Shown one piece after another: positions 1,484-30,944 of a stretch of 64,000 nucleotides of DNA; positions within the stretch are counted from its first letter, which is position 1; every line of letters starts with the position of its first letter. The notes below the pieces were generated by a model, which worked only from the letters and a program-made list of their open reading frames with translations, made no database searches and was not told the DNA's origin. The DNA comes from a bacterium (GTDB taxonomy: Bacteria; Patescibacteriota; Saccharimonadia; Saccharimonadales; Saccharimonadaceae), in NCBI GenBank assembly GCA_043724245.1, contig JAYSMZ010000018.1, forward strand, positions 626-64,625, given 5' to 3'. The position numbers were made by a program, and so were the translations under genes.

Positions 1484-1873
1484 TTATGCCCCAAACTGTC
1501 CAATAATATAGTTTACGATTGCATATGCCATAATCGCAACTATCAGACCGACTACGGCGTACAGCAAGGTGTTTTTTGCCTTGGTTACCAGTGTCGCGTC
1601 CCCACCGGAAGTTGTGTAGGTAATGCCAGCTATAATTATGACGATAACTGAAACTGCCGCAAGAATAAACAACAAAGTATTGACTATTATCTTTACATAA
1701 TTTGGAAGTTTGTTTGTTGTTCTACTTTTACACAGGACAGAATTTGCTGCGGCTCCAGTACAGGAGTCCTTTAATGGGTCATAGGGAGCAGCACCGGCGT
1801 GTGCTGGTATCAAGAACAGACCAAAGCTTACGATAAAACCTAGAGTTAATATCAGATATTTAATTTTTTTCAT
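1484..1873 (-). CDS. T4SS pilin-like small membrane protein, paralog 4
   Basis: Same architecture, with head Cys pair (DSCTGAAANSVLC) and tail TYTTSGGDATLVTKAKNTLLYAVVGLIVAIMAYAIVNY. I prefer the internal ATG at 1873 (MKKIKYL..., preceded by a GGGGGA RBS-like run) over the track start at 1891. Confidence 0.75.
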   Translation of the reverse strand: MKKIKYLILTLGFIVSFGLFLIPAHAGAAPYDPLKDSCTGAAANSVLCKSRTTNKLPNYVKIIVNTLLFILAAVSVIVIIIAGITYTTSGGDATLVTKAKNTLLYAVVGLIVAIMAYAIVNYIIGQFGA

Positions 1874-1907
1874 CTTGCCGATGTCCCCCAATAATTTTTA
1901 TATGCCA

Positions 1908-2216
1908 TTAAAACTTTCCTGTCATTTTCCCTATCACAAATTGAGTTATAAAAAATGCCAGGATTACCACTATTAAACCGATAACGGAGTACAAGATGGC
2001 GTTCTTTGCCTTGGCTATTTTTGCCGGGTCGTACGATGCCGATGCAAATGAAAAACCGGAGAGAATAATAATTATTACCGCAACAGCCCCAACTATAAAA
2101 TATATCCCATCTAATACTCCTCCGAGTACGCTAACTGCGCTTGTGTGGGGAATACTGACTTCGGTAGTTTTAATCTTAACCGGATCTACTGCTGCTAATA
2201 TTTCTAATATCATCAT
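1908..2216 (-). CDS. Short divergent pilin-like two-TM protein, paralog 5
   Basis: 102 aa. Two TM helices with a linker ASASYDPAKIAKAKNAILYSVIGLIVVILAF that echoes the ..AAK.TILYA.VG.. module. There is no obvious signal peptide. 4-nt overlap with the upstream gene. Confidence 0.6.
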   Translation of the reverse strand: MMILEILAAVDPVKIKTTEVSIPHTSAVSVLGGVLDGIYFIVGAVAVIIIILSGFSFASASYDPAKIAKAKNAILYSVIGLIVVILAFFITQFVIGKMTGKF

Positions 2217-2653
2217 TTTATTACCTTATCAAATACAAAATTAACTAATGCTATCGCGGAAATCATCAAGACTAACCCCATAACGGCCATTGTCATTATC
2301 GAACGTGCCTTGGCGGCAGTTTCAGGTTTACCTTGGCTGATAATAAACATCCAGCCTCCAAACAAGAACATAAACCCAGACAAATAGGCGGCAACCACGA
2401 TTGCCATTTCAACTATATTAAGCACAATAAGCCAAATAAACCTACTTAACCCCCCGGCGCTGGCCGGACTTTTTATATTGCACTTGTTGTCAGTCAGGCC
2501 TCGGTACCATGACGGAAACCCCAAAAAGCCTTGATTACAACTATCAGAAAGGCCTGCAGCGCTTGTCGTTTGAGGCGTAGTAGTAACAACCATAACCCCG
2601 CCAACAGCCGCAATTATGACGAATGATGTTATCCAGTTACGTAAGCTTTTCAT
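2213..2653 (-). CDS. Divergent pilin-like membrane protein, paralog 6
   Basis: 146 aa. Signal peptide, Cys pair (DSCNQGF...NKC), two TM helices with a loop IISQGKPETAAKARSIMTMAVMGLVL. Overlaps neighbours by 4 nt on both sides. Confidence 0.65.
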   Translation of the reverse strand: MKSLRNWITSFVIIAAVGGVMVVTTTPQTTSAAGLSDSCNQGFLGFPSWYRGLTDNKCNIKSPASAGGLSRFIWLIVLNIVEMAIVVAAYLSGFMFLFGGWMFIISQGKPETAAKARSIMTMAVMGLVLMISAIALVNFVFDKVIK

Positions 2654-3039
2654 GGCGAAAACAGACCTCCTGGAATAATAAAATTCAAAAAGGCAAACAT
2701 GGCAGCGTATACTATTATGCCTAAAATTACATTCGATAAGAATATATTGGCTTTCTTAATCCTGTCAGGGCTGCCACCGGCCGTCATATACATAACAGAT
2801 CCAAACACTACTCCGCCAACAGCCGCAATCCCGACTCCGGCGGTAAGAAAATTTATTGCCATCAGTAACAATCCCCAAATACCAGTGTCCTTGATGTTTG
2901 TTTTAGATTTTCCCTCCGTACAAGATATTATCGAAGTCTTGACGCCACCACACGTCGCGGCAGATGCAACAGGGCCAACAAAAACACCAGTCAGCCCTAT
3001 TATTAACCCAATTAAAAGTATTGTTTGTTTTATTTTCAT
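2650..3039 (-). CDS. Divergent pilin-like membrane protein, paralog 7 (first gene of the array)
   Basis: Signal peptide MKIKQTILLIGL..., Cys pair (ATCGGVKTSIISC), two TM helices with a loop MTAGGSPDRIKKANIFLSNVILGIIV. I prefer the ATG at 3039, which matches the MK.K starts of the paralogs, over the track start at 3078. Confidence 0.65.
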   Translation of the reverse strand: MKIKQTILLIGLIIGLTGVFVGPVASAATCGGVKTSIISCTEGKSKTNIKDTGIWGLLLMAINFLTAGVGIAAVGGVVFGSVMYMTAGGSPDRIKKANIFLSNVILGIIVYAAMFAFLNFIIPGGLFSP

Positions 3040-3188
3040 GCCTATTAATAAAGTACGATAAAAACTAGTATTACGCAAGTGTTTTAGAAAAACGTTATCA
3101 GATTAGTATTGCATTTTTTGCGTTTTTAGTGTATAAATATCTGTAACAACTTGGTTACTAATTATTAGCGTATGAAGGGATATAAACC

Positions 3189-4019
3189 GTGAAAAGTGAA
3201 TCAATAACAGATTGTGGTCATGAACGTAAGAAGTTTTCACCAAAGAAAGCAGTTGCGTCTGTAGCCGCGTTTGCGGTTTTTGCTACAGCTGGTATAGGTT
3301 GCGGCAAAGAGTTAACCAAAAGCCAGCCTCAACCAAAACCGACAAAAACCGAAATTGCTAGCCCAAGTCCCGAAGCAACCCCTGCTAACGTAGATATGTT
3401 TACCAACGCCATGGAAAAATACAAGAGAATGGACGTTGAAACGTTCGATGAATTACCATTTGACGAACGATTGCAGTATTCACAGTACGCAATAGACCTT
3501 ACTGTTTTGTCTGGCGAATATAAAGTTCTCTATGGACAAGCAAAATCCCGCGAATACAAGATAAAACCCGAGCCAGTTTCTATTGACAGCAACGGACAAG
3601 AAATATTAGACGCTAATTTATACAACAGACAATTGGCATATATCAATGTCGGTGACGGTAAAAGCACAGGCGATTGGGCGGTTAATTATGATACCAGAGA
3701 CGGCGAAAAGATTTTTAATAGCGTTTATTATGAGACTAGAAAAGGTAAGATGGTTTCCGTTGATTATCTTGATAACGTAGCAGAGCTAGAAAAAATGGGG
3801 AAAAGCGAACAAGACATGTTCTTAAAAAATAAATGGACCGCAACAGGAACAAGCGATCTTATGTCGGGCAAGGATAGGCAAGGTAATACAATTCAGTATA
3901 AAAACGTCAAATTTCATAATCAAGACGGCAAGGATTTTGAGGGAAAGTTTATTTATAAAACATATGAAAATTATGACGGTAATGAACAAGGGGTCTGGTT
4001 ACTGGATTTTTTCTATTAA
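3189..4019 (+). CDS. Putative lipoprotein, unknown function
   Basis: 276 aa. The N-terminal hydrophobic segment ends in a lipobox-like ATAGIGC. It is followed by a Pro/Thr-rich linker and a soluble domain. Divergent from the pilin array. Confidence 0.55.
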   Translation: MKSESITDCGHERKKFSPKKAVASVAAFAVFATAGIGCGKELTKSQPQPKPTKTEIASPSPEATPANVDMFTNAMEKYKRMDVETFDELPFDERLQYSQYAIDLTVLSGEYKVLYGQAKSREYKIKPEPVSIDSNGQEILDANLYNRQLAYINVGDGKSTGDWAVNYDTRDGEKIFNSVYYETRKGKMVSVDYLDNVAELEKMGKSEQDMFLKNKWTATGTSDLMSGKDRQGNTIQYKNVKFHNQDGKDFEGKFIYKTYENYDGNEQGVWLLDFFY

Positions 4020-4136
4020 AAAATTTGTTTAATAAAATGTATAATCTAAATCGAGAAAAACAACTATTTTTTAAGTTGACATGAAATCTAATACATTCTT
4101 GTATAACCATAGCCCTTGTGGTTAAATGTAGATATC

Positions 4137-7100
4137 ATGTGGCGCAAACACACATTCAAAAAAATTATTCTATTCTCGATGATTACATTGATCACATTTG
4201 GAATGGTCGAGCCTCTATTTATGACTACCGTTCGGGCCTTTGGGTCAGGAGGAGGAAGTACTGGCGGAACCTCTACCCACCTCTCCGACAAATTCACTCC
4301 AGTAGATGGTGCTCGATCATGGCTGTACCTTCGAATGCTATCTTATTGTTTTTCAATTACTCCACTGATTGACGGTGATAAAATATCGGCGGAACACGCA
4401 GAAAAAATAAATTGGTTCAAGGATCCAGGATATCAACCTGTCTATAATAATGGTGTAGCTGGTCCACCTAAACTGGATTTGATTGAAGACAACAGTTTTC
4501 TATCTGAGGCCGGATTCACTAGTGGTGTTAGTTGTTACAAATTTGAAGACACTCCCTCCACCAATAAATCGAGTTGGATACGGAATGCTGTTAAATTGTG
4601 GGGATATGATTCGGCAGCCTCAGCACTTTGTGACTTTGGGTTTGTGCGCGCAAACAGCCCGAATGACAGTGGGAATGATTGTGTGAATGGCAGCGGAGAT
4701 TTTAAGAGCCCAAACGGCACTAGGCTTGATTCTGATAAATTCAGACTAAGCGTTCTGTCAAAGGTTTACGGTGGAAATTTTGGTAATGACCCAACATTAA
4801 CAAAAGCACAAAATTATACATTTAATTGGTATTCATTTAGAGACCGTTGTTTGGGACTTGCAAATAGTATGACGCCATCCAATGCTGGTCCTGCCGAGAG
4901 ACAATATCATGTCAATGTGGTAGATAATTCGACTGGTAGGGTATCTAGAGTGGCATTTGTTGGCATGAAACCAAGAACAGAAACAATTTACAATCTTACG
5001 TCTATACAATCTCCTCAACGAGGCAATCTGAGCGCCCAATGCGGTGCAATGGAAGCAGTAATAAATGCTAATGCCGCTGCTCTTTCGACATGGATCAAGA
5101 ACAATATAAAAAATGGTGGAGGTGGTAATGTAGTTGACCCAACAAGCAATGAGGCTTTGAATCCTAGCGGCGGCACGAATAATAACACAACAGATAACAG
5201 TTGCGGGGCACAGGTATCAGGGATTGGATGGATAATTTGTCCTATTATAAGTGCATTGACGAAATTAGATGACGGGATGTGGTCATTAGTGTCGGGTCTT
5301 TTAAACGTCAGCCCAATCAAACAATCCAACCAAGCCAAAAGTATTTACAGTGCTTGGGGTTCAATCCGAAGTATCGCAAATATTCTTTTTGTAATATTTT
5401 TCCTTGTCATTATATTTTCTCAATTAACAGGCGCCGGTATCACGAATTATGGTGTCAAAAAAATGTTGCCGAAGATAATTATTGCGGCAATCTTGGTTAA
5501 CGTTTCGTTCATTATTATTCAGCTTGCTGTGGATTTGGCTAATATCATAGGCTCGAGTCTTTATAACTTCATCGTTGGTATGGCACCAGCATACACAGTA
5601 GGATGGGGTAGTGCGTTAGACATACTGGTAGGTGTTGCGGGAGCCGGAGCTGCGGCTGTTGGTGTAGTGGCTTTAGCCGGAGGACCGACTGCCTTATTCT
5701 TTATCTTGTTGGGACTTGCCTTAATAAGCGCGCTTGGATTATTAACAGCGGTTCTTACGCTTATATTTCGTCAGGCCGCTATAATTGTCTTGGCTATACT
5801 TGCACCATTAGCCTTCGTAGCCTATCTGCTTCCAAATACCGAAAGTTGGTTTAAAAAATGGAGAGGATTACTGTTGTCAATGTTAATGATGTATCCGATG
5901 GCTGCACTTATTTTTGCTGGCGCACAATTTGCAGCAGCGACAATTATCGGCAATGGCAAAGACTTTTGGAATATAATGATTGGACTGACAATGATGGCCT
6001 TGCCACTATTTTCTTTGCCATTCATAGCCAGACAAGGTGGTTCAATATTATCCAGGGTCAACGGTGCGTTACAAGGCGTGGCTAATCGGGCGAACCAGCC
6101 GATAAGAGACACGGCCAAAAGCTTCTCGGACAGCGCCGCCGCCAGGTTTCGAGCCAACAACGCGGATCAACGTGGCGGAGTATTAGGGGGCTTCCAGCGA
6201 GTTGGTAGAGGCCTTAGCTATCCTTCACGACACCTTAGTAGGGCATGGGAGGGTGCACGACTAAACCGCGAAGCCCAAACCGAAACAGCACAAAGTGAGC
6301 TCAAATCACAACTAGGCCGTAATCAGGTTCGTGGTATGTTCGGCAGAAGAATCAGGGGCCAAGAGACGGACGTAGCAGCAGCCGCAGCCAAGGAGATGCT
6401 GGCCCAAAACGCAACAATGACAAGCACAAGATTGAAAGAACAAAACCCTACAATAAACGCCAGGCATGGTGAAACAATGGGGTTAAATGAGCGTGGATAT
6501 GCGGCAGAAGGGAATAAAAAGGTCGCTGAGGCAAGGGTTAAGGAGGGCTTAATGGAAAATAGAGGATTTGATGAACTCAGACGACAAATTGACCACTCTG
6601 AATCTATCGCGGGCGCCGCGGAAAATCGAGCCGCGGGACGAGTCGAACGAGACCCGACTACATTACAAGTACGAAGAGATGCTTTCGAAGCCGAGGCTGA
6701 CCTTAATACTGATAAAAAGTGGACTGAAACGGGAATTGGAATCGACTCCACGCTAGACGACACAAGAGCAAGATTAGAGGAAGCAACAGTGGCAGCAGAA
6801 GGTGCAACTAGCGACGCGGCAGCCCTCACTGAATTGGACCCTCGCGTCCAGACAATGAAATCCTATGCCGAAGGTGCAAAAATGAGACACGAGGCAGCCC
6901 AAGAAGTAACCAAACAAACGATTGCAGATGACCCAACATTAGATGCCGATAGAGATCGGCTTGAAAATGCAAAGACGATCGCAGATACAGCGACGAAACT
7001 TGCTAGTGACAGAACCGAAGCTAAACCTGAGATATTAAGGGCAAGGGCTGCGAATAAAGCTGCTGAGCGCAAACTGGACACAACTAAAAAGAATGTGCAG

Positions 7101-8267
7101 ACAACTATTACGAGTGCTAGTTCAGATACCCCATCGGCAGAAGCAATCGCAGGCATCGATGCGGCAACGAGACTCTCACTACATACCACTGCAGTTGAAG
7201 AGGAAAGAGCCAAGCAAGAAAGTGACGAGGCTACGGATACACTAGCAACTGACCTCGAAAATAATCTGACATTACAAGATGAGCGATTGGCAGCCGCAAC
7301 TGCCAAAAAGGAACATGAGGCAGCAACCTCACAAAATACTCAACTTGTCACTGAAGCAACGTCAGGAGTGAAAGCAGAACCAGGCTCGAGATTGGCCGGA
7401 GTTGACGCTACAATACGAACTAGGCTGCAAACGGCACAGTTTGCAGCCAGTAATGCAGCCAGCGCAACTAGCCAAGCGCAACGTGAAATAACCTATGACT
7501 ATACAGAGGAGTTGTTGGACGATTCAACAGGTGCCGCAACGGCGGCGGCTGGCATAGGCGGACAAGAGGCAGAGGTCCGAGTTAAAGCTGGTGCAACTGC
7601 CGCACAATCAAAGCAGATGCAGGAGGACGTATCTGCAAATAAAACATTATTCGCCGAAAGAGGCCTAACGACTGGTGACGATCCAAAAGAATCAGCCGAT
7701 AAGCACCAGATACTAGACATTATTGTAAATGGCGTAGTACCAGGTGTTGGCGGTGCCCCGCCGACCACGGCAACAACGGAAGAGTTAATAACGGCTGATG
7801 AAATGATGGTTGATACTACCTCGAGGATGGGCATGGCACAAACATGGGACGCGATTGCAGCTATGCCTGGAGGACCTACCGCGACAGAAGAACAAAGAAC
7901 GGCAAAACGACGTCGAGCACAGGCATTTCGAGATTCTCTTAAACGGTCCGGCAATAGTCCAAAGTTCATTGGTGGTGCCGCTATGGGCGATCTTGCTGCC
8001 GGCACACCAAGCGATACTTATATGACTCTGGCTAAAAAAGTCATGCAAAAAACAAAGATTTCCGCTGGCGACTTTCTTGGCTTAGATAAGGACGAAATTG
8101 GTATATACGGCGCCGTTCTTGCAGATGACCCTAGTGTATTGAGCAATGACCAGAAAGAAGCCCTTCGTGTATCTATAGAAGAAGCTTATGAAGATAAGGA
8201 CATCAGAGGTCATCTATCTCAGGAAAAAAGAGACCGGATGGACGCGCTTTACGGTCTCTTGTCGTAA
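4137..8267 (+). CDS. Giant VirB6/TrbL-like polytopic T4SS membrane protein with long Ala/Glu-rich C-terminal tail
   Basis: N-terminal signal/TM, then a ~380-aa Cys-containing ectodomain. A block of about 6-7 hydrophobic helices follows (e.g. ILFVIFFLVIIFSQL, AILVNVSFIIIQLAVDLANIIG, LAILAPLAFVAYLLPNTESWFKKW), as in VirB6/TrbL. After that comes a ~740-aa low-complexity, coiled-coil-like tail. ATG 4137 (MWRKHTFKK) is preferred over TTG 4116. Confidence 0.7.
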   Translation: MWRKHTFKKIILFSMITLITFGMVEPLFMTTVRAFGSGGGSTGGTSTHLSDKFTPVDGARSWLYLRMLSYCFSITPLIDGDKISAEHAEKINWFKDPGYQPVYNNGVAGPPKLDLIEDNSFLSEAGFTSGVSCYKFEDTPSTNKSSWIRNAVKLWGYDSAASALCDFGFVRANSPNDSGNDCVNGSGDFKSPNGTRLDSDKFRLSVLSKVYGGNFGNDPTLTKAQNYTFNWYSFRDRCLGLANSMTPSNAGPAERQYHVNVVDNSTGRVSRVAFVGMKPRTETIYNLTSIQSPQRGNLSAQCGAMEAVINANAAALSTWIKNNIKNGGGGNVVDPTSNEALNPSGGTNNNTTDNSCGAQVSGIGWIICPIISALTKLDDGMWSLVSGLLNVSPIKQSNQAKSIYSAWGSIRSIANILFVIFFLVIIFSQLTGAGITNYGVKKMLPKIIIAAILVNVSFIIIQLAVDLANIIGSSLYNFIVGMAPAYTVGWGSALDILVGVAGAGAAAVGVVALAGGPTALFFILLGLALISALGLLTAVLTLIFRQAAIIVLAILAPLAFVAYLLPNTESWFKKWRGLLLSMLMMYPMAALIFAGAQFAAATIIGNGKDFWNIMIGLTMMALPLFSLPFIARQGGSILSRVNGALQGVANRANQPIRDTAKSFSDSAAARFRANNADQRGGVLGGFQRVGRGLSYPSRHLSRAWEGARLNREAQTETAQSELKSQLGRNQVRGMFGRRIRGQETDVAAAAAKEMLAQNATMTSTRLKEQNPTINARHGETMGLNERGYAAEGNKKVAEARVKEGLMENRGFDELRRQIDHSESIAGAAENRAAGRVERDPTTLQVRRDAFEAEADLNTDKKWTETGIGIDSTLDDTRARLEEATVAAEGATSDAAALTELDPRVQTMKSYAEGAKMRHEAAQEVTKQTIADDPTLDADRDRLENAKTIADTATKLASDRTEAKPEILRARAANKAAERKLDTTKKNVQTTITSASSDTPSAEAIAGIDAATRLSLHTTAVEEERAKQESDEATDTLATDLENNLTLQDERLAAATAKKEHEAATSQNTQLVTEATSGVKAEPGSRLAGVDATIRTRLQTAQFAASNAASATSQAQREITYDYTEELLDDSTGAATAAAGIGGQEAEVRVKAGATAAQSKQMQEDVSANKTLFAERGLTTGDDPKESADKHQILDIIVNGVVPGVGGAPPTTATTEELITADEMMVDTTSRMGMAQTWDAIAAMPGGPTATEEQRTAKRRRAQAFRDSLKRSGNSPKFIGGAAMGDLAAGTPSDTYMTLAKKVMQKTKISAGDFLGLDKDEIGIYGAVLADDPSVLSNDQKEALRVSIEEAYEDKDIRGHLSQEKRDRMDALYGLLS

Positions 8268-8302
8268 GAGAAAAAATATTAATATCTTTCACGCCGAATT
8301 TT

Positions 8303-8334
8303 TTATACTATAAGCTGTATGGCGGTATATAAAG
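8303..8334 (+). repeat. Direct repeat copy 1 (32 bp; duplicate of the 5' end of the prgI-like gene)
   Basis: ttatactataagcTgtatggcggtatataaag, versus 9087-9118 ttatactataagcAgtatggcggtatataaag. That is 31/32 identical. Confidence 0.9.
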
Positions 8335-8382
8335 GTATACAAAATGGTAGATGTTAGTCAGTAGATAGTAATTAGCGAATGT

Positions 8383-8718
8383 TTATTTATTCAACCGACT
8401 AGCAACAGCAAACTGCATAAAATATCGCTCCAAGTTTTGGTCTTGACCCGATTTACCAGCATCACTTAATATGGCCGTTAGATACACTTCTTTAGCTCGT
8501 AATACTTCTTTGGATTTGGGGGATTTATTGGCAATTAACGTTGATATGGTCGCATCAAACAAATCAATCGCACGCCTTACGGCCTGCAAACAACCCTCAT
8601 TGTCATCGCGGCGCTTAGCACTAAAAGACCTGCCGACCTCGCTTGAAATATTGCCCATTTGGTTAAAAATATTCATTTTCGACCAGCGCTCCTGGTCAAC
8701 TGCGTATGACTCATTCAT
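8383..8718 (-). CDS. Hypothetical helical protein (cassette gene 2)
   Basis: 111-aa ORF with a 4-nt overlap with the upstream gene. I recognise no motif. Confidence 0.5.
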   Translation of the reverse strand: MNESYAVDQERWSKMNIFNQMGNISSEVGRSFSAKRRDDNEGCLQAVRRAIDLFDATISTLIANKSPKSKEVLRAKEVYLTAILSDAGKSGQDQNLERYFMQFAVASRLNK

Positions 8719-9056
8719 TGTTTGACTTTCTCGGCAACCAGCAATGTTATTTGTTTTCGAAGATTTTCATCATCAACGCCACGAGACATATTTTGTTGCC
8801 TTGGCCGGATATTTATCATCGAGTCAAATTCAATAAATTCGTCCGTACCAAACTTTGCAGGATATAGGTTGATACCCCATAAATCATCTTGTTTCGAGCC
8901 ACTTTCTAACAATTTTTGCTCGGCATCTACGTGCATTTCTACATCTACAACCATAGCCTTTTTCTCAAGGTCAACAACAGCCTTCACTAGATTGCCGTAC
9001 ATCTTTTGCGCCATTTCGTTCAATTCAACGGCTGTTATCATATCAATCTGTTTCAT
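8715..9056 (-). CDS. Small conserved hypothetical protein, DUF5674-like (cassette gene 1)
   Basis: 113 aa. The pattern ...GNLVKAVVDLEKKAMVVDVEMHVDAEQKLLESGSKQDDLWGINLYP...FDSMINIRP... matches my recollection of the DUF5674 family. The function is unknown. Confidence 0.5.
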   Translation of the reverse strand: MKQIDMITAVELNEMAQKMYGNLVKAVVDLEKKAMVVDVEMHVDAEQKLLESGSKQDDLWGINLYPAKFGTDEFIEFDSMINIRPRQQNMSRGVDDENLRKQITLLVAEKVKQ

Positions 9057-9086
9057 ATAGATAGTATACCAGAGCGGAAAGGTGAG

Positions 9087-9118
9087 TTATACTATAAGCA
9101 GTATGGCGGTATATAAAG
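9087..9118 (+). repeat. Direct repeat copy 2 (contains the -10-like TATACT and start codon of the prgI-like gene)
   Basis: See the 8303-8334 entry. Confidence 0.9.
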
Positions 9119-10077
9119 TCCCCCAAGATGTTGAAGCTGACGATAAATTAATCGGACCGTTTAGTTTTCGCCAGTTTATTTATCTGGTTATTGTCGCTTT
9201 GGCAATTATGATGGCGTGGGGATTGGCGCAGTTATTTGTCCCTCTTTTAGTTCTGCCGTTGCCAATCATCATATTTTTCGGTGCACTTGCCTTGCCACTG
9301 CGCAAAGACCAACCAATGGAAATATACATGGCGGCAATGGTGTCGTTTTTCCTGAAACCACACCGACGTTTATGGGACCCGGATGGTATTGATTCATTAA
9401 TTGAAATTACCGTACCAAAAATTATCGAATACAGCCGAACTAAAGATTTATCTATGTCCGAAGCCGAACGCCGTTTTAGTTATTTGGCTGAAATAGTCGA
9501 CAGCCAAGGGTGGGCTATCCGTGGACCCGGAGTCCAAGCACCAAATAGTGCTATGACAAGCGACGCATATTTTGAAGCTCAGTCTGTCGAGGACATATTG
9601 GATAACAACGCAACAACTTCGCTTTCACTATCTGATAAATTAAAACAAAGTGAAGCCCGCCTGCGCCAAGAGGCGGTCGACATTATGCATAAAAAAGTGT
9701 TCGCGCCCAAACCACAGCCTGTTGCTACAGCCCAGCCAAAGCAACTGGCTCAGCCTCAGCCTGTTCAACCAATGCCAAGTCCTGCCAGTTATTTTGGAGG
9801 CACACCACTTGTCGAACCGGCTATTGCCGCTGAGCCAACAGTCGCTACGCCGATCAACTATAACCCATACCCAGATATCAGACAGTCGGTCATCGAACCA
9901 ATCGGGCAACAAAAACCAGCGGCCAAACCAAAAACAACCACTAGCGCAAAGGTGGTACCAGCTGGTATAATAAACCTCGCTAGTAATACCGATCTAACAA
10001 TCGCGGCTATTGCTCGTGAAGCTGATAGAATTCAGAAAAAACAAGACGCACAAGAGGTAATAGTTAAACTTCGATAG
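9103..10077 (+). CDS. PrgI/VirB3-like T4SS membrane protein with Pro/Gln-rich C-terminal extension
   Basis: The N-terminus MAVYKVPQDVEADDKLIGPFSFRQFIYLVIVALAIMMAW is followed by a second TM helix. This matches the PrgI-family (VirB3-like) signature of Gram-positive T4SS. ATG 9103 is preferred over GTG 9082. Confidence 0.65.
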   Translation: MAVYKVPQDVEADDKLIGPFSFRQFIYLVIVALAIMMAWGLAQLFVPLLVLPLPIIIFFGALALPLRKDQPMEIYMAAMVSFFLKPHRRLWDPDGIDSLIEITVPKIIEYSRTKDLSMSEAERRFSYLAEIVDSQGWAIRGPGVQAPNSAMTSDAYFEAQSVEDILDNNATTSLSLSDKLKQSEARLRQEAVDIMHKKVFAPKPQPVATAQPKQLAQPQPVQPMPSPASYFGGTPLVEPAIAAEPTVATPINYNPYPDIRQSVIEPIGQQKPAAKPKTTTSAKVVPAGIINLASNTDLTIAAIAREADRIQKKQDAQEVIVKLR

Positions 10078-10108
10078 CAAATACTAAGGGGAGTGGGAAC
10101 GAACAAAC

Positions 10109-10939
10109 ATGCCGCCAAACAATCAAACGCCAGTACAACCGCCTGCCGCTCCGCCTGCAGGTAATTCTGCTATCCAGGGCTCTGGTACCAATGCTCCTGC
10201 ACCACAAAAGCCAAAAAACCCTAATTCTACCCAAAACACCCTGTTATTATCAGAGATCCGCGACAATATGGTCATCATGACTGATGGTTCGTTCCGCGCT
10301 GTTGTTGCCTGCAAATCAATAAACTTCGATTTGATGAGCAGTACCGAACGCGAAGGCGTCGAATACAGTTACCAAAATTTCCTGAATGCCCTAAACCATC
10401 CAGTTCAAATACTTATCCGTTCACAACGTATTGATATTGGCCCGTACATTGAACGTCTAGTCGAAATACGTCGCAACCAGGATAATATGCTGCTAAACGT
10501 TTTGATGGATGATTACATCGACTATATCGATATGCTGTCCCAAGAAGCGAATATTATGGACAAATCATTTTTTATCGCAATTCCATACTATGCGCAGGGC
10601 GATGTTAACAACCTGGTTGAACAAGGCAAGGGATTCTTTGGCAAGTTATTTGGCGGAAATAAAAATATTATTACTAAAATTGACACTATCACTTACGAAA
10701 AAGCCAAAACTGAAATAAAAAACAGAGTTGACGGTGTTATGGCCGGGTTGTTCCAATTGGGAATACAAAGCGTCCAATTAAACACCAAAGAACTTGGCGA
10801 ACTGTATTATAACTTTTATAACCCAGACACAGCAGTACGCGAACCACTAGGAGATTTTGACAACGTAACATCGATTTATACCAAAAAAGCAACTGCTGAT
10901 ACACCAGTCGAACAAGCAGGAACAGAGGTAACAGAATGA
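10109..10939 (+). CDS. T4SS protein resembling a detached VirB4 N-terminal domain
   Basis: 276 aa. A disordered Pro-rich N-terminus precedes IRDNMVIMTDGSFRAVVACKSINFDLMSSTEREGVEYSYQNFLNALNHPVQILIRSQRIDIGPYIERL. That pattern is like the CagE/TrbE/VirB4 N-terminal region. The stop overlaps the VirB4 start as ATGA. Confidence 0.5.
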   Translation: MPPNNQTPVQPPAAPPAGNSAIQGSGTNAPAPQKPKNPNSTQNTLLLSEIRDNMVIMTDGSFRAVVACKSINFDLMSSTEREGVEYSYQNFLNALNHPVQILIRSQRIDIGPYIERLVEIRRNQDNMLLNVLMDDYIDYIDMLSQEANIMDKSFFIAIPYYAQGDVNNLVEQGKGFFGKLFGGNKNIITKIDTITYEKAKTEIKNRVDGVMAGLFQLGIQSVQLNTKELGELYYNFYNPDTAVREPLGDFDNVTSIYTKKATADTPVEQAGTEVTE

Positions 10940-12837
10940 TGGCACGAAAAAAATCCGATGTTTCCGAAATCGCTGCCGAGCAACGCGAACGTGAACAAAT
11001 CGAAGTTGAACAAGCATTTTTAAAGGGCGTTACAACACTTCGTGATTTAATCGCCCCCAGTAGTATCGAAATTCATTCATCACATTTTAGACTGGGAACA
11101 AAATATGGACGGACGCTATATATATATGGATACCCGCGACAAATTTATACCGGTTGGCTGAGTTCGCTGATTAATATTGACGAGGTTTTAGATGTCAGTA
11201 TGTTTGTTTATCCGGTTGAAAGTCAGGTTGTTCTGAAAAACTTGCGTAAAAAAGTGACTCAGCTGGAAGCGTCAATGTCAATTAACAGCGAAAAAGGCCG
11301 GATTCGGGACCCAGGTCTGGAAGCCGCTATCGGCGACGCCGAAGAACTTCGCGACCAATTGCAGGTTGGAGCCGAAAGGTTTTTCCGCTTCGGACTTTAC
11401 ATAACACTATATGCCGACAGTATGGATGAACTAGGGTTTGTCCAACATAAAATTGAAACGATTTTTGGCCAGCAAATGGTTTTCAGCAAAGTCGCCAGCA
11501 GTCAGCAAGAACAGGGATTGAACAGCACTATACCGCAAATGTCAGACCAGTTACAAATTCGTCGCAACATGGACACGGGTGCAATCAGCACAAGTTTCCC
11601 ATTCACCAGCGCCGATTTGACCCAAGAAAACGGCATACTTTATGGAATTAATATGCATAACAATGGCCTAGTCATCTTTGACAGGTTTAGTTTAGAAAAT
11701 GCTAATATGGTGGTTTTTGCAAAGTCGGGTGCAGGCAAATCTTTCACGGTTAAACTTGAGGCTTTGCGAAGTTTGATGACTGGTACTGAAGTCATTATCA
11801 TCGATCCGGAAAGTGACTACAAAAAACTTTGTGATGCGGTAGGTGGCAGTTATATTCGCCTAAGCTTGAATTCGAACACCAGGATTAATCCTTTTGATTT
11901 ACCGCGTGTTATTGATACCGACGAAGCCGACAATGCTTTGCGTGCCAATTTAATTACCCTGCATGGACTATTAAAGCTTATGCTGGGCACTACTCAGCCG
12001 ACAACAACCGGCGTCCCAATGCCTTCGGCATTAACTCCTACAGAAGAGGCAGACCTAGATCAAGCATTAATTGATACTTATGCTCGTGTCGGGATTACAG
12101 CCGATCCGTTGACGCATAATTCACAACCGCCAACAATCAGCGACTTGTATGATACGCTTTTGCACATGGGTGGCAGTGGGCCAAGTTTGGCTCAGCGTTT
12201 GCGGAAATACACGTCTGGAACTTTTGCCGGGATATTCAGCCAGCAATCCAATACTGAAATAAATAATATGATGGTGGTATTTAATACTCGTGACCTAGAG
12301 GATGAATTGCGACCGGTTGCAATGTATATTATTCTCAGTCATATCTGGAATTTAATCCGTGCAGAAAAAAAGAAACGGCTTTTAATAATTGATGAGGCCT
12401 GGGAAATGATGAAATATGACGACTCGGCAAACTTTTTATTCAGTCTGGCCAAACGAGCTCGTAAATATTATTTGGGCCTGACGACAATCACACAGGATGT
12501 CGAAGATTTTATGAGCAGTAAAATGGGGCGCGCCATCGTTGCCAACAGTTCGATGTCGATTCTGTTAAAGCAATCGCCAAGTGCAGTTGATGTCATGTCG
12601 AATGTCTTTAAGTTAACAGATGAGGAAAAGAAGCGATTAGCAAATTTCCCAATCGGCCAAGGTTTGTTCTTTGCCGGACAAAGCCACGTCCATATACAAA
12701 TTGACGCCAGCGATGCTGAAAAACAAATAGCCAACACCAATCCTCAAATTGCCGACCAGCCAATAGGTCCACAACCAACTCAACCAAACAGTGGGCCCAG
12801 CGCTAGTAGTTATATTAACCCCGAATCAAGCGTGTAA
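10936..12837 (+). CDS. virB4: VirB4-family T4SS ATPase
   Basis: 633 aa. Walker A is FAKSGAGKSFTVK and Walker B-like is LLIIDEAWEMM. The upstream motif GRTLYIYGYPRQIYTGWLSSL is typical of Gram-positive VirB4/TrsE-type ATPases. Confidence 0.85.
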   Translation: MMARKKSDVSEIAAEQREREQIEVEQAFLKGVTTLRDLIAPSSIEIHSSHFRLGTKYGRTLYIYGYPRQIYTGWLSSLINIDEVLDVSMFVYPVESQVVLKNLRKKVTQLEASMSINSEKGRIRDPGLEAAIGDAEELRDQLQVGAERFFRFGLYITLYADSMDELGFVQHKIETIFGQQMVFSKVASSQQEQGLNSTIPQMSDQLQIRRNMDTGAISTSFPFTSADLTQENGILYGINMHNNGLVIFDRFSLENANMVVFAKSGAGKSFTVKLEALRSLMTGTEVIIIDPESDYKKLCDAVGGSYIRLSLNSNTRINPFDLPRVIDTDEADNALRANLITLHGLLKLMLGTTQPTTTGVPMPSALTPTEEADLDQALIDTYARVGITADPLTHNSQPPTISDLYDTLLHMGGSGPSLAQRLRKYTSGTFAGIFSQQSNTEINNMMVVFNTRDLEDELRPVAMYIILSHIWNLIRAEKKKRLLIIDEAWEMMKYDDSANFLFSLAKRARKYYLGLTTITQDVEDFMSSKMGRAIVANSSMSILLKQSPSAVDVMSNVFKLTDEEKKRLANFPIGQGLFFAGQSHVHIQIDASDAEKQIANTNPQIADQPIGPQPTQPNSGPSASSYINPESSV

Positions 12838-12856
12838 AGGATAATGCAAGGGAATT

Positions 12857-30813: not shown

Positions 30814-30944
30814 CAGTACCAGTATAACGCAAGTTGGTAGGTAGTAGGTAGTAGTTGGTGTTTGGGAATTAGAGACAATACAATCAGGCTTATTAATTGA
30901 TGATAAAGTTATGTGTTTATGCTTAGCTCTGATATATTGATATT

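Follow-up and report, generated by a model that had tools for sequence, protein, structure and literature searches.

Evidence for insertion of a DUF5674 cassette with long target duplication at the prgI gene of Saccharibacteria

Results

The window, by which we mean the whole 64,000-nt stretch of DNA that was analysed, contains a chromosomal T4SS locus in which a VirB6-like gene and a PrgI/VirB3-like gene are separated by a small cassette (Table 1). A direct repeat of 32 nt, TTATACTATAAGC(T/A)GTATGGCGGTATATAAAG, with a start-to-start distance of 784 nt, encloses 752 bp that hold two overlapping genes on the opposite strand. Its coordinates and its identity of 31/32, as given in the original prediction, were borne out. 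When up to three mismatches were allowed, the window held these two copies only, and 100 dinucleotide shuffles gave 0 matches; self-BLAST of the 752-kb genome (G000) also returned them as the sole pair of this repeat. A repeat pair on contig C35 of the genome belongs to a different, multi-copy repeat family.

Table 1. Features at the cassette insertion in the window, and repeats at the prgI sites of other assemblies
Feature	Position (nt)	Strand	Description
VirB6-like polytopic T4SS gene	4116..8267	+	ORF; its hypervariable C-terminal tail flanks the insertion on the left
R1 (upstream repeat copy)	8303..8334	+	relic of the prgI -10 box, start codon and first 5 codons; 31/32 identical to 9087-9118
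Relic ORF, 12 codons	8319..8357	+	MAVYKGIQNGRC, then stop; opened by the duplicated start codon, read from sequence
TAG/GGTAG-rich stretch, 47 nt	8335..8381	+	between the relic and the stop of the partner gene; stops in all three plus-strand frames
Partner gene, 111 aa	8383..8718	-	predicted four-helix bundle (AlphaFold pLDDT 86.8, four long helices)
DUF5674 gene, 113 aa	8715..9056	-	first cassette gene; PF18924, 102.9 bits, E 1.3e-29
Spacer, 30 nt	9057..9086	-	leaderless-type promoter of the cassette: TGGTATACT, 6 nt, ATG on the minus strand
R2 (downstream repeat copy)	9087..9118	+	functional copy: prgI -10 box, leaderless start, first codons
prgI/VirB3-like T4SS gene	9103..10077	+	Pfam PF12666, E 4.8e-11; intact thanks to the duplication
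L039			repeat 76 nt, 93% identical
G280/L040			repeat 85 nt, 96% identical
L146			repeat 30 nt, 100% identical
L152			repeat 56 nt, 95% identical
L151			repeat 104 nt, 89% identical
L149			cassette at the prgI site, no repeat

The two copies differ in their role. The downstream copy R2 contains TATACT, the ATG at 9103 and the five initial codons of the PrgI-family gene, in agreement with the original prediction, and this promoter together with the first 30 prgI codons is nearly invariant across the genus. The upstream copy R1 lies in the ancestral position, adjoining the virB6-prgI spacer, and is preceded by ...tttg, as are the single copies at the empty sites of G005 and G004 described below. 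The duplication thus preserves both the promoter and the complete reading frame of the essential prgI, while the copy facing virB6 is a dead relic; PrgI has been reported to be essential for the epibiotic growth of S. epibionticum (PMC12102498). The short relic ORF, which had been predicted as a product of the upstream copy, was read directly from the sequence and ends at the first TAG of the TAG-rich stretch. An origin of this stretch (8335-8381) as decayed prgI was rejected, its alignment to prgI nucleotides 17-72 being no better than that of shuffles (p 0.29). Its alignment to the equivalent stretch of L146 gave a p of 0.016, and TAG-rich arrays were also found elsewhere in the genome and after the partner gene in L147/L150. 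The window relic thus ends after 32 nt, where the TAG-rich stretch of non-prgI origin begins.

Short words had been noted just inside the repeats, namely GGTATAC (8334-8340) with its complement GTATACC (9064-9070), and the shared word TAGATAGTA. These words are present, but a reading of them as element ends or terminal repeats was rejected: GTATACC is the -10 box of the DUF5674 gene, and the shared word belongs to the TAG-rich stretch. No terminal inverted repeats of the insert were found beyond the 7-nt palindromic word, itself a -10 box, the Rfam search of 7800-9600 returned no structured element, and the terminator scan returned no terminator. The motif TGnTATACT, followed by 6-7 nt and ATG, precedes DUF5674 in all cassettes of the clade, and motifs of this type are enriched before long ORFs in the genome; the sigma-70 scan is blind to such extended -10 promoters.

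The cassette was expected to consist of a DUF5674-like gene and a gene for a helical protein, and both assignments were supported by the Pfam match and by the four-helix model of the partner. The DUF5674 score of 102.9 bits compares with a Pfam gathering cut-off of 27, and positions 7-107 of the 109 in the profile are covered. The two genes overlap by ATGA, and the partner is, judging from this overlap, translationally coupled to DUF5674. DUF5674 is a large and unusually conserved family, with more than 8000 homologues, an identity of 55-86% and a mean column identity of 64% across phyla, and the invariant residues K25, D29, H42, E46, S54, Q56, W60, N63, FIEFDS74-79, N82 and N89. Its predicted model (pLDDT 94.9) had no fold match in the PDB and BFVD by Foldseek, the best E values being 1.8 and 1.2. 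The partner protein, with 1749 cluster representatives at E<=1e-3, had no sequence match in Pfam, NCBIfam, PADLOC or the PDB, and it was placed by Foldseek as a generic four-helix bundle, with FliS as the best match (E 0.06).

Searches with both proteins against Pfam, NCBIfam, PADLOC and PHROGs gave nothing except the DUF5674 name, and profile searches of PDB sequences gave chance matches only. Neither protein matched a restriction or modification family, the PADLOC MTase_II match at E 0.015 being at chance level. Readings of the motifs as MazG-like, HEPN/MNT or HUH-transposase were rejected, since the R-x4-6-H, HUH and EExxE motifs are all lacking and no tool supported them. A literature search found no mention of DUF5674 or PF18924, and the phage collection contained no homologue.

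To place the insertion among relatives, we compared the orthologous loci of the genus. In the sister species G005 and the next relative G004, the VirB6-like gene is directly followed by prgI, with a single 32-nt copy and no cassette, which is the empty site that the original prediction had proposed to look for. The downstream copy of the window is identical to the G005 target (32/32), and the window prgI is 89% identical to that of G005 and 76% to that of G004. DNA homology between the window and G005 is lost at about 6352 and regained only at the repeat. Within the sampled genus, DUF5674 was carried only by G000 and G280. A search for other copies, also suggested at the outset, located the same cassette at the prgI site in six other assemblies of the same genus, as well as the gene pair in more than 150 loci.

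The repeats at these occupied sites vary in extent (Table 1). The duplications of 56-104 nt reach as far as about prgI codon 25-29, and the inner end of the repeat differs by genome, from +16 to about +88 of prgI. Each relic resembles the prgI start of its own genome; in L039, for instance, both copies have TCA and GAA. The duplication in L151 includes the cassette's own promoter. L151 and L152 match at 91% as far as the relic's outer end, past which the two sequences are unrelated. The original prediction had remarked on the unusual length of the repeat and on the lack of a recombinase; the insert indeed had no mobility-family match, and 32 nt turned out to be at the short end of the range. 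An assembly artefact, in which reads from two populations would have been mis-joined, might be suspected in a 37-contig metagenome-type assembly such as this. However, the order of virB6, relic, cassette and prgI recurs in six other independent assemblies from different studies, each with its own variants, and a 32-nt repeat, whose copies moreover differ at one base, is below the usual assembly k-mers, leaving a mis-join with a negligible probability.

The same data bear on the view of the feature as a site-specific insertion with duplication of the target. The insertion and the duplication are supported by the empty sites, whereas "site-specific" is better replaced by homology-guided, because the repeat consists in every case of the prgI start of the host itself and other contexts show different local duplications. 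A recombinase acting in trans on a miniature non-autonomous element, with the 32 nt as the core of its attachment sites (attL/attR), would account for the use of an identical site in several genomes and for direct repeats that restore the target gene, as they do for islands in gene ends. It is nonetheless a very improbable explanation, given that the repeat is host sequence with a variable inner end, that unrelated duplications flank the cassette elsewhere and that G000 has one Xer-like tyrosine recombinase only, on another contig, with none near the cassette.

We further examined the history of the site with trees. In the prgI tree, the occupied genomes (6 of the 27 in-genus rows) are scattered and interleaved with empty ones, and the occupied state requires five changes, four of which are forced by well-supported branches; the window is sister to the empty G005 (100/100), and G280 to the empty G016 (100/98). 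The repeat copies differ by 0-11%, whereas between cassettes the divergence amounts to 0.5-0.6 substitutions per site and synonymous sites are saturated, and the relics are therefore, on these sequence distances, young relative to the cassettes.

These results can be set against a single insertion in the ancestor of the genus, followed by vertical descent and many precise losses, with the relic kept alike by gene conversion or by promoter selection. The cassettes of the window, G280 and L039 have diverged from one another as far as the T4SS genes beside them have (pS 0.5-0.9 vs 0.7-0.85), the cassette DNA tree is star-like, as is the host tree, and all seven T4SS-site cassettes fall within one 13-row clade (99 SH-aLRT). 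In addition, the left junction lies in the same small prgI region in all of them, the truncated relic is common to the window and L146, and direct repeats ease precise loss. Vertical descent of the T4SS-site cassettes may thus be compatible with the data, a clade of the window with L149 not being rejected (p-AU 0.34). However, this course needs many independent precise losses to yield the scattered occupancy, and the relics are 89-100% identical to the live copy, whereas the adjacent spacer and TAG-rich DNA has diverged almost past alignment. Relic and live copy differ at -18 (C vs T) in both L151 and L152, indicating that conversion is not homogenising the copies, and the -10 box of the L146 relic is TGTACT, which counts against the relic being a conserved, live promoter. 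Monophyly of the T4SS-site cassettes was also rejected, although weakly (p-AU 0.032) and on star-like trees. Taken together, we consider a single ancient insertion possible but rather unlikely.

Beyond the T4SS site, the partner adjoins DUF5674, always following it, in nearly all of the 185 loci examined, and the two form a fixed pair in more than 150 loci of many phyla. At least 10 phyla contain the pair, which is also present on conjugative plasmids and in some genomes lies within toxin-antitoxin-rich islands (HicAB, MazE, zeta). For the partner on a cyanobacterial plasmid, homology to the window partner was not detectable. Local duplications flanked the pair in 13 of 151 loci, compared with 1 of 204 shifted controls; they measured 14-170 nt, occurred in several unrelated contexts and were lacking in more than 90% of the loci. 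The duplicated targets are unrelated to one another, being the prgI start, the pheS end, a pilin gene start or whole small genes. In the pheS case, 73 nt from the end of pheS are repeated downstream, where the neighbouring DNA is variable, and both junctions show microhomologies of 4-5 nt (ATGA, GATGA); in G450, the same cassette after pheS has only about 14 nt duplicated. Genes after pheS differ in other genomes, and the pheS-pheT junction carries a stack of several cassettes.

Alternatively, the repeats might be enriched at this pair through an activity of the cassette itself. DUF5674, an acidic/His-rich protein, with or without the partner, would then break DNA and leave a long staggered target duplication, in a new recombinase-less mode of transposition like the one that has been suggested for the restriction enzymes of restriction-modification complexes. 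The enrichment at unrelated targets is what this would lead one to expect, as are the presence of the pair in at least 10 phyla and on conjugative plasmids unaccompanied by any other mobility gene, the inserted DNA of L070, which spans exactly from start codon to stop codon, and the invariant D, E and H residues, which suggest an enzyme. Self-movement is nevertheless improbable: the proteins show no similarity to nucleases, transposases or recombinases in sequence or fold, terminal repeats are not conserved, and neither the wide range of duplication lengths nor the large majority of loci lacking a duplication fits it well. We rate equally low the stronger idea of the pair as a novel type of autonomous selfish element, in which DUF5674 provokes a break or strand switch. 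If true, a self-inserting pair would be the long-sought mechanism of insertion with long target duplication, contained in a 0.7-kb cassette.

Discussion

The comparison of occupied and empty prgI sites supports the interpretation of the window feature as a self-contained cassette of two genes that was inserted with long target duplication. As to its origin, we infer a rare illegitimate insertion, after which the relic acted as a homology arm for RecA-dependent spread and precise deletion, and to this course we give an even chance. The duplication would first have been made by a rare insertion at the level of microhomology, and at tightly packed essential junctions only duplicating insertions would survive. 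The relic would then constitute a portable homology arm on the hypervariable side, which is the virB6 tail here and the genes after pheS elsewhere, and any relative with the conserved prgI start could incorporate such DNA, once taken up, through ordinary homologous recombination. Such integration would rewrite the relic with the recipient's sequence, and recombination between the two copies would delete the cassette precisely.

The window's genome encodes RecA, ComEC and DprA, and natural transformation, with integration of the DNA by homologous recombination, has been described for Saccharibacteria (PMC11665869). In favour of the homology arm, homology between the close relatives L151 and L152 stops exactly at the outer edge of the relic. 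On the other side, the T4SS-site cassette copies are all anciently diverged in a star tree, with no transfer caught in the act, an arm of 30-100 nt is short for RecA-dependent integration, and the model is silent on the origin of the first duplication and on the promoter-covering duplication of L151. The window and L146 have the same truncated relic across a deep divergence, yet it is 97-100% identical to the live copy, and this needs repeated refreshing, conversion or selection. Since the group of these hosts now has naturally transformable laboratory cultures, spread by the homology arm is directly testable.

The findings could be of importance in several respects. The loci form a natural series, in which a 0.7-kb cassette occupies one essential-gene site in at least seven genomes, with empty sister sites, duplications of 0-104 nt and parallel cases at other junctions. 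They show that in Saccharibacteria an opposite-strand insert is tolerated in the essential T4SS operon, and enters it repeatedly, provided that the promoter and start of prgI are duplicated. The cassette probably carries a selfish or conditionally useful module, an enzyme and its partner with an addiction-like character; a selfish, addiction-like role of DUF5674 and the partner, in particular, is plausible. The pair is very widespread, mobile and functionally blank, and DUF5674, whose fold has no known relative, represents a target for biochemistry.

Among known systems, integrase-mediated islets with attL/attR differ from the cassette, which has no nearby recombinase and no element-borne core common to all insertions, and DNA transposons and insertion sequences differ in that the cassette has neither transposase nor terminal inverted repeats and makes a long, variable duplication. 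The cassette resembles integron cassettes in that small cassettes, promoter-poor or of a single operon, gather at one site, as in the pheS-pheT stack; unlike them, it has no IntI integrase and no attC-like folded site, and its boundary repeats copy the neighbouring host gene. It shares with type II toxin-antitoxin systems the composition of two small coupled genes with a patchy, horizontally spread distribution, but no toxin or antitoxin homology was found (Pfam, NCBIfam, PADLOC, PDB sequence and fold), and DUF5674 is unusually conserved.

Closer parallels are found in naturally competent bacteria. Minimal mobile elements of Neisseria are recombinase-less cassettes that are exchanged by transformation between two conserved flanking genes and are not known to leave a target duplication. 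The present cassette is likewise recombinase-less and present or absent at a fixed site in a naturally competent genus, but one of its flanks is hypervariable and the duplicated target copy substitutes for it. Homology-facilitated illegitimate recombination and insertion-duplication (Campbell-type) integration are known in Acinetobacter, Streptococcus pneumoniae and Bacillus subtilis. They use one short homologous anchor, RecA and the competence machinery and give microhomology junctions, and a single crossover duplicates the homologous segment. Those events were obtained in the laboratory with engineered donors, whereas the putative anchor of the cassette would be a natural relic travelling along with it.

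Insertion with long target duplication itself first emerged from genome comparisons about 25 years ago. It was described for restriction-modification (RM) gene complexes by Nobusato et al. (2000), as cited in Furuta, Abe & Kobayashi (2010, Nucleic Acids Res; PMC2853133). These complexes are inserted without a transposase or integrase and are flanked by variable direct repeats of more than 30 bp, which correspond to one copy in a related genome free of the insert and permit loss or amplification; most cases come from naturally competent bacteria, and the mechanism is unsolved (PMC2853133). The repeats of the window align in the same manner to a single copy in the insert-free G005 and G004 (compare PMC2853133). 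The duplication is similarly variable and longer than 30 bp (32 nt in the window, 30-104 at the same site and 73-170 in other contexts), and the 752-bp insert, with two genes and no mobility family, corresponds to RM-complex insertions of less than 20 kb that lack mobile-element genes. The present case differs in its cargo, which is a pair of DUF5674 and a four-helix protein with no R or M genes, and in the recurrence of the cassette at one site in several species with differing duplication lengths. It also differs in the piece that is duplicated, the promoter and start of an essential secretion gene, and in the host, a reduced-genome epibiont.

Results

The cassette of the window lies between the virB6-like gene and prgI of a T4SS locus, which also holds TrsD-like, VirB4 (CD1110 family) and cell-wall hydrolase genes. 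Direct comparison of the two copies of TTATACTATAAGC(T/A)GTATGGCGGTATATAAAG bore out the 32-bp direct repeat of the original prediction, with 31 of 32 nt the same; none of 100 shuffled sequences gave a match. No third copy was found within the window with up to 3 mismatches allowed, and a self-comparison of the window's own genome (G000, a Saccharibacterium; 752 kb, 37 contigs) indicated that this was its sole pair of the 32-nt repeat. The predicted content of the downstream copy, the relic ORF and the two overlapping opposite-strand genes were also present, one of the genes being DUF5674, and the two genes are joined by an ATGA overlap. The GTATACC word just inside the repeats, which had been noted as a separate feature, is explained by the minus-strand promoter of the cassette itself, which is of the same type as that of prgI.

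Coordinates of the cassette and its boundaries in the window
Feature	Position	Strand	Description
R1, relic copy of the repeat	8303-8334		31/32 identical to R2; in ancestral left context
Relic ORF, 12 codons	8319-8357		opened by the upstream repeat copy
Partner gene, 111 aa	8383-8718	-	without any family match
DUF5674 gene	8715-9056	-	PF18924, E 1.3e-29
Cassette promoter	9057-9071	-	TGGTATACT, 6 nt, then ATG
R2, live copy of the repeat	9087-9118		TATACT, ATG at 9103, first prgI codons; in ancestral right context
prgI	start 9103		PrgI family, PF12666, E 4.8e-11

The 276-aa gene at 10109-10939, before VirB4, matched the NCBIfam TrsD/TraD model (E 1.7e-5) and also the N-terminal region of a VirB4 model. 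In L039, another locus with the cassette at prgI, the orthologue of this gene is TraC-like in Pfam, and a TrsD homologue adjoining VirB4 has been described as a regular, essential component of the T4SS of Patescibacteria (PMC12102498). Thus, this gene is probably TrsD and not a detached VirB4 N-domain.

The relatives compared, which were all metagenome-type assemblies, had a prgI homologue in 38 of 41 cases. DUF5674 was not found in any of 24 congeneric species, and a wider family sample added only one carrier within the genus, G280 (UBA5170). The sister species G005 is 89% identical to the window in PrgI and 83.6% in DNA over 9086-12846. In G005 and the next relative, G004, the stop codon of the VirB6-like gene is followed by a short spacer and a single 32-nt copy leading directly into prgI. 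This is the empty site that the original prediction had proposed looking for, and its single copy supports the claimed insertion with target duplication. Judged from these sites, the inserted DNA is 8335-9086 plus one repeat copy.

What was duplicated is a promoter with a gene start. The layout TG-n-TATACT, 5-9 nt and ATG is a frequent gene start in G000, where 63% of TATACT sites of this layout lie upstream of an ORF of at least 80 aa, compared with 14-31% for control hexamers, and this enrichment suggests leaderless transcripts. Extended -10 boxes (TGnTATACT or TATAAT) were also observed 5-9 nt before the ATG of many genes, as at window 9087-9105 and 9054-9071 (minus strand), with no room for a Shine-Dalgarno sequence, and leaderless mRNAs appear common in this genome. 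The extended -10 motif and first 30 codons of prgI are near-invariant across the genus, and a cultured relative, S. epibionticum, has been reported to need PrgI for epibiotic growth (PMC12102498). An insertion at the prgI start would be survivable only with promoter and start kept, and the duplication provides both.

The order and orientation of virB6, relic, partner, DUF5674, spacer and prgI were the same in six other assemblies of the genus. The repeat measured 76 nt (93% identity) in L039, 85 nt (96%) in G280/L040, 30 nt (100%) in L146, 56 nt (95%) in L152 and 104 nt (89%) in L151, and was absent from L149. Every relic has the variants of its own genome's prgI start. The longer relics reach about codon 25-29 of prgI and adjoin the stop codon of the partner, and those of the window and L146 end after about 30 nt at a 45-nt TAG-rich stretch, which is alignable between the two (p 0.016); a derivation of this stretch from prgI was ruled out (p 0.29). 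Short GGTAG/TAG-rich arrays, such as GGTAGGTAGTAGATAGTAGGTGG, which give stops in every frame of one strand, occur at about ten mostly intergenic sites in G000 (window 8346-8378 and 30838-30859; contigs C3, C5, C13, C17, C20 and C36), and also after the partner gene in L147/L150 and L146. The repeat of L151 (481-584 and 1250-1353) includes the cassette's promoter and the first DUF5674 bases, and looks as if the cassette and prgI start had been duplicated in tandem and most of one copy lost.

The flanks of the pair elsewhere were scanned over 600 nt on either side for direct repeats at E<=1e-4, with pseudo-cassettes shifted by 1.9 kb as the control. Such a repeat was found in 13 of 151 loci and in 1 of 204 shifted controls, and the duplicated sequence differed between cases: the last 73 nt of pheS in L070, the promoter and start of a pilin-like gene in L135 (124 nt), and whole genes in L174 (57-aa membrane protein, 170 nt) and L037 (49 aa, 138 nt). 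The ends of the L070 insert coincide exactly with the start codon of DUF5674 and the stop codon of the partner, both junctions having 4-5-nt microhomology (ATGA, GATGA), and relatives have one pheS end followed by differing genes. The relic lies on the variable downstream side in L070 and on the variable virB6 side in the window. In one of these relatives, G450, the same pair occupies the pheS junction, and only about 14 nt of the pheS end is repeated.

The pheS-pheT junction is an insertion hotspot in other Saccharimonadales (L070 3900-5330; L238, from G450, 1690-3080), where the genes after pheS vary by genome, each attached by an ATGA stop/start overlap, with up to three cassettes stacked before pheT (DUF5674 pair, methyltransferase or hydrolase). 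Two further repeats were observed in G000 outside the window. Around a single 200-aa gene of unassigned family there is a 42-nt direct repeat (90%; contig C35 1552-1593 and 2255-2296). Other genomes of the genus have two or three copies of this repeat on a contig, without the genes that flank it here, which suggests a distinct family of cassette-boundary repeats. The other direct repeat, of 50 nt (94%; contig C30 304-352 and 4174-4223), encloses a 3.8-kb segment of about five genes, one of them an ABC-transporter ATPase-like ORF, and is a candidate for another insertion with long target duplication.

DUF5674 homologues number more than 8000 in a large protein collection, many being 70-86% identical to that of the window, and 1749 cluster representatives were counted for the partner family at E<=1e-3. 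Of 185 loci from species genomes and metagenomes, almost every one has the partner after DUF5674, the hosts being Saccharibacteria, other Patescibacteria, Omnitrophota, Bacteroidota, Planctomycetota, Actinomycetota and others; no homologue of the pair was found in the phage collection. Its neighbours vary (toxin-antitoxin-rich islands, tryptophan or threonine biosynthesis genes, pheS-pheT), and no constant third gene was present among the neighbourhoods compared. All seven T4SS-site cassettes fell in one well-supported 13-row clade that includes cassettes from other contexts, their strict monophyly being weakly rejected (p-AU 0.032). Distant versions are carried by Nostocales conjugative plasmids: in cultured cyanobacteria (L233, Nostoc punctiforme pNPUN01, 2962-3665; L234, Trichormus variabilis plasmid A), DUF5674 is 35-38% identical and overlaps by 4 nt the next gene, which encodes a 124-aa protein; the surroundings hold small genes, an ERF-family recombinase and an epsilon-exonuclease-like gene. 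This plasmid pair offers a tractable system for studying the function of the pair.

DUF5674 is highly conserved, its mean column identity across phyla being 64%, and its invariant residues include K25, D29, H42, E46, the FIEFDS motif and N82/N89. Its predicted model was confident (pLDDT 94.9), with no fold match in the PDB or among predicted viral structures. The partner was modelled as a four-helix bundle (pLDDT 86.8) with generic structural matches only, and no Pfam model matched it. Neither protein matched defence, toxin-antitoxin or phage families. The architecture, patchy spread and neighbours suggest, by analogy, that the cargo may be a selfish enzyme-plus-regulator or addiction-like module. 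A role of the two proteins themselves in mobility is conceivable but unlikely.

Discussion

The cassettes of different genomes are old relative to their relics. Synonymous sites among the cassettes of the window, G280 and L039 are near saturation (pS 0.5-0.9), like those of the flanking T4SS genes, and the DNA of the cassettes has diverged by 0.5-0.6 substitutions per site, giving a star-like tree of low resolution. The repeat copies within one genome differ by 0-11%, and the spacer and TAG-rich DNA beside them is hardly alignable between genomes; thus, the relics have been either renewed repeatedly or protected. The main rival to the reading preferred below is a single ancient insertion with many precise losses and with conversion or selection on the relic, which we consider rather unlikely. 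L151 and L152, which are 91% alike, have C in both relics where both live copies have T, indicating that the duplication is older than their split and that this position was not homogenised. In the PrgI tree, the occupied genomes are scattered, with the window sister to the empty G005 (100/100) and G280 to the empty G016 (100/98), and the tree requires five state changes, of which well-supported branches impose four.

Homology between L151 and L152 stops exactly at the outer edge of the relic, the virB6 tails beyond being unrelated. The virB6 tail of the window (6352-8267) likewise has no DNA homology with that of G005, though the genes of the opposite flank share 84% identity. G004 has a homologue of the C-terminal tail of the window's VirB6-like protein. 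This tail is a segment prone to swapping, with its end at the relic repeat.

Saccharibacteria are naturally transformable; homologous recombination integrates the DNA, and plasmids are not known from them (PMC11665869). G000 encodes RecA, ComEC and DprA, and its tyrosine recombinases are limited to one Xer-like protein. The reading that we prefer, with about even confidence from the sequence comparisons, is that a rare illegitimate insertion would have made the first duplication, and that the relic would then provide a homology arm that travels with the cassette, on the flank whose DNA varies too much to pair. Imported DNA could thereby be integrated by ordinary recombination and bring the cassette in front of any prgI start that is conserved, part of the relic being replaced by recipient sequence at each transfer, and recombination between the two repeat copies would remove the cassette precisely. 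This model would account for the constancy of the site in the absence of a recombinase, for relics that look young beside old cassettes, for the scattered distribution and the clean empty sites, and for the loss of homology at the relic's outer edge.

[quoted passage not shown] The window cassette has the published features of such events, namely, repeats longer than 30 bp with a single aligned counterpart in a related genome and a small insert without mobility genes, whereas its cargo is not a restriction-modification system. Therefore, it is an event of that same kind, carrying a new passenger.
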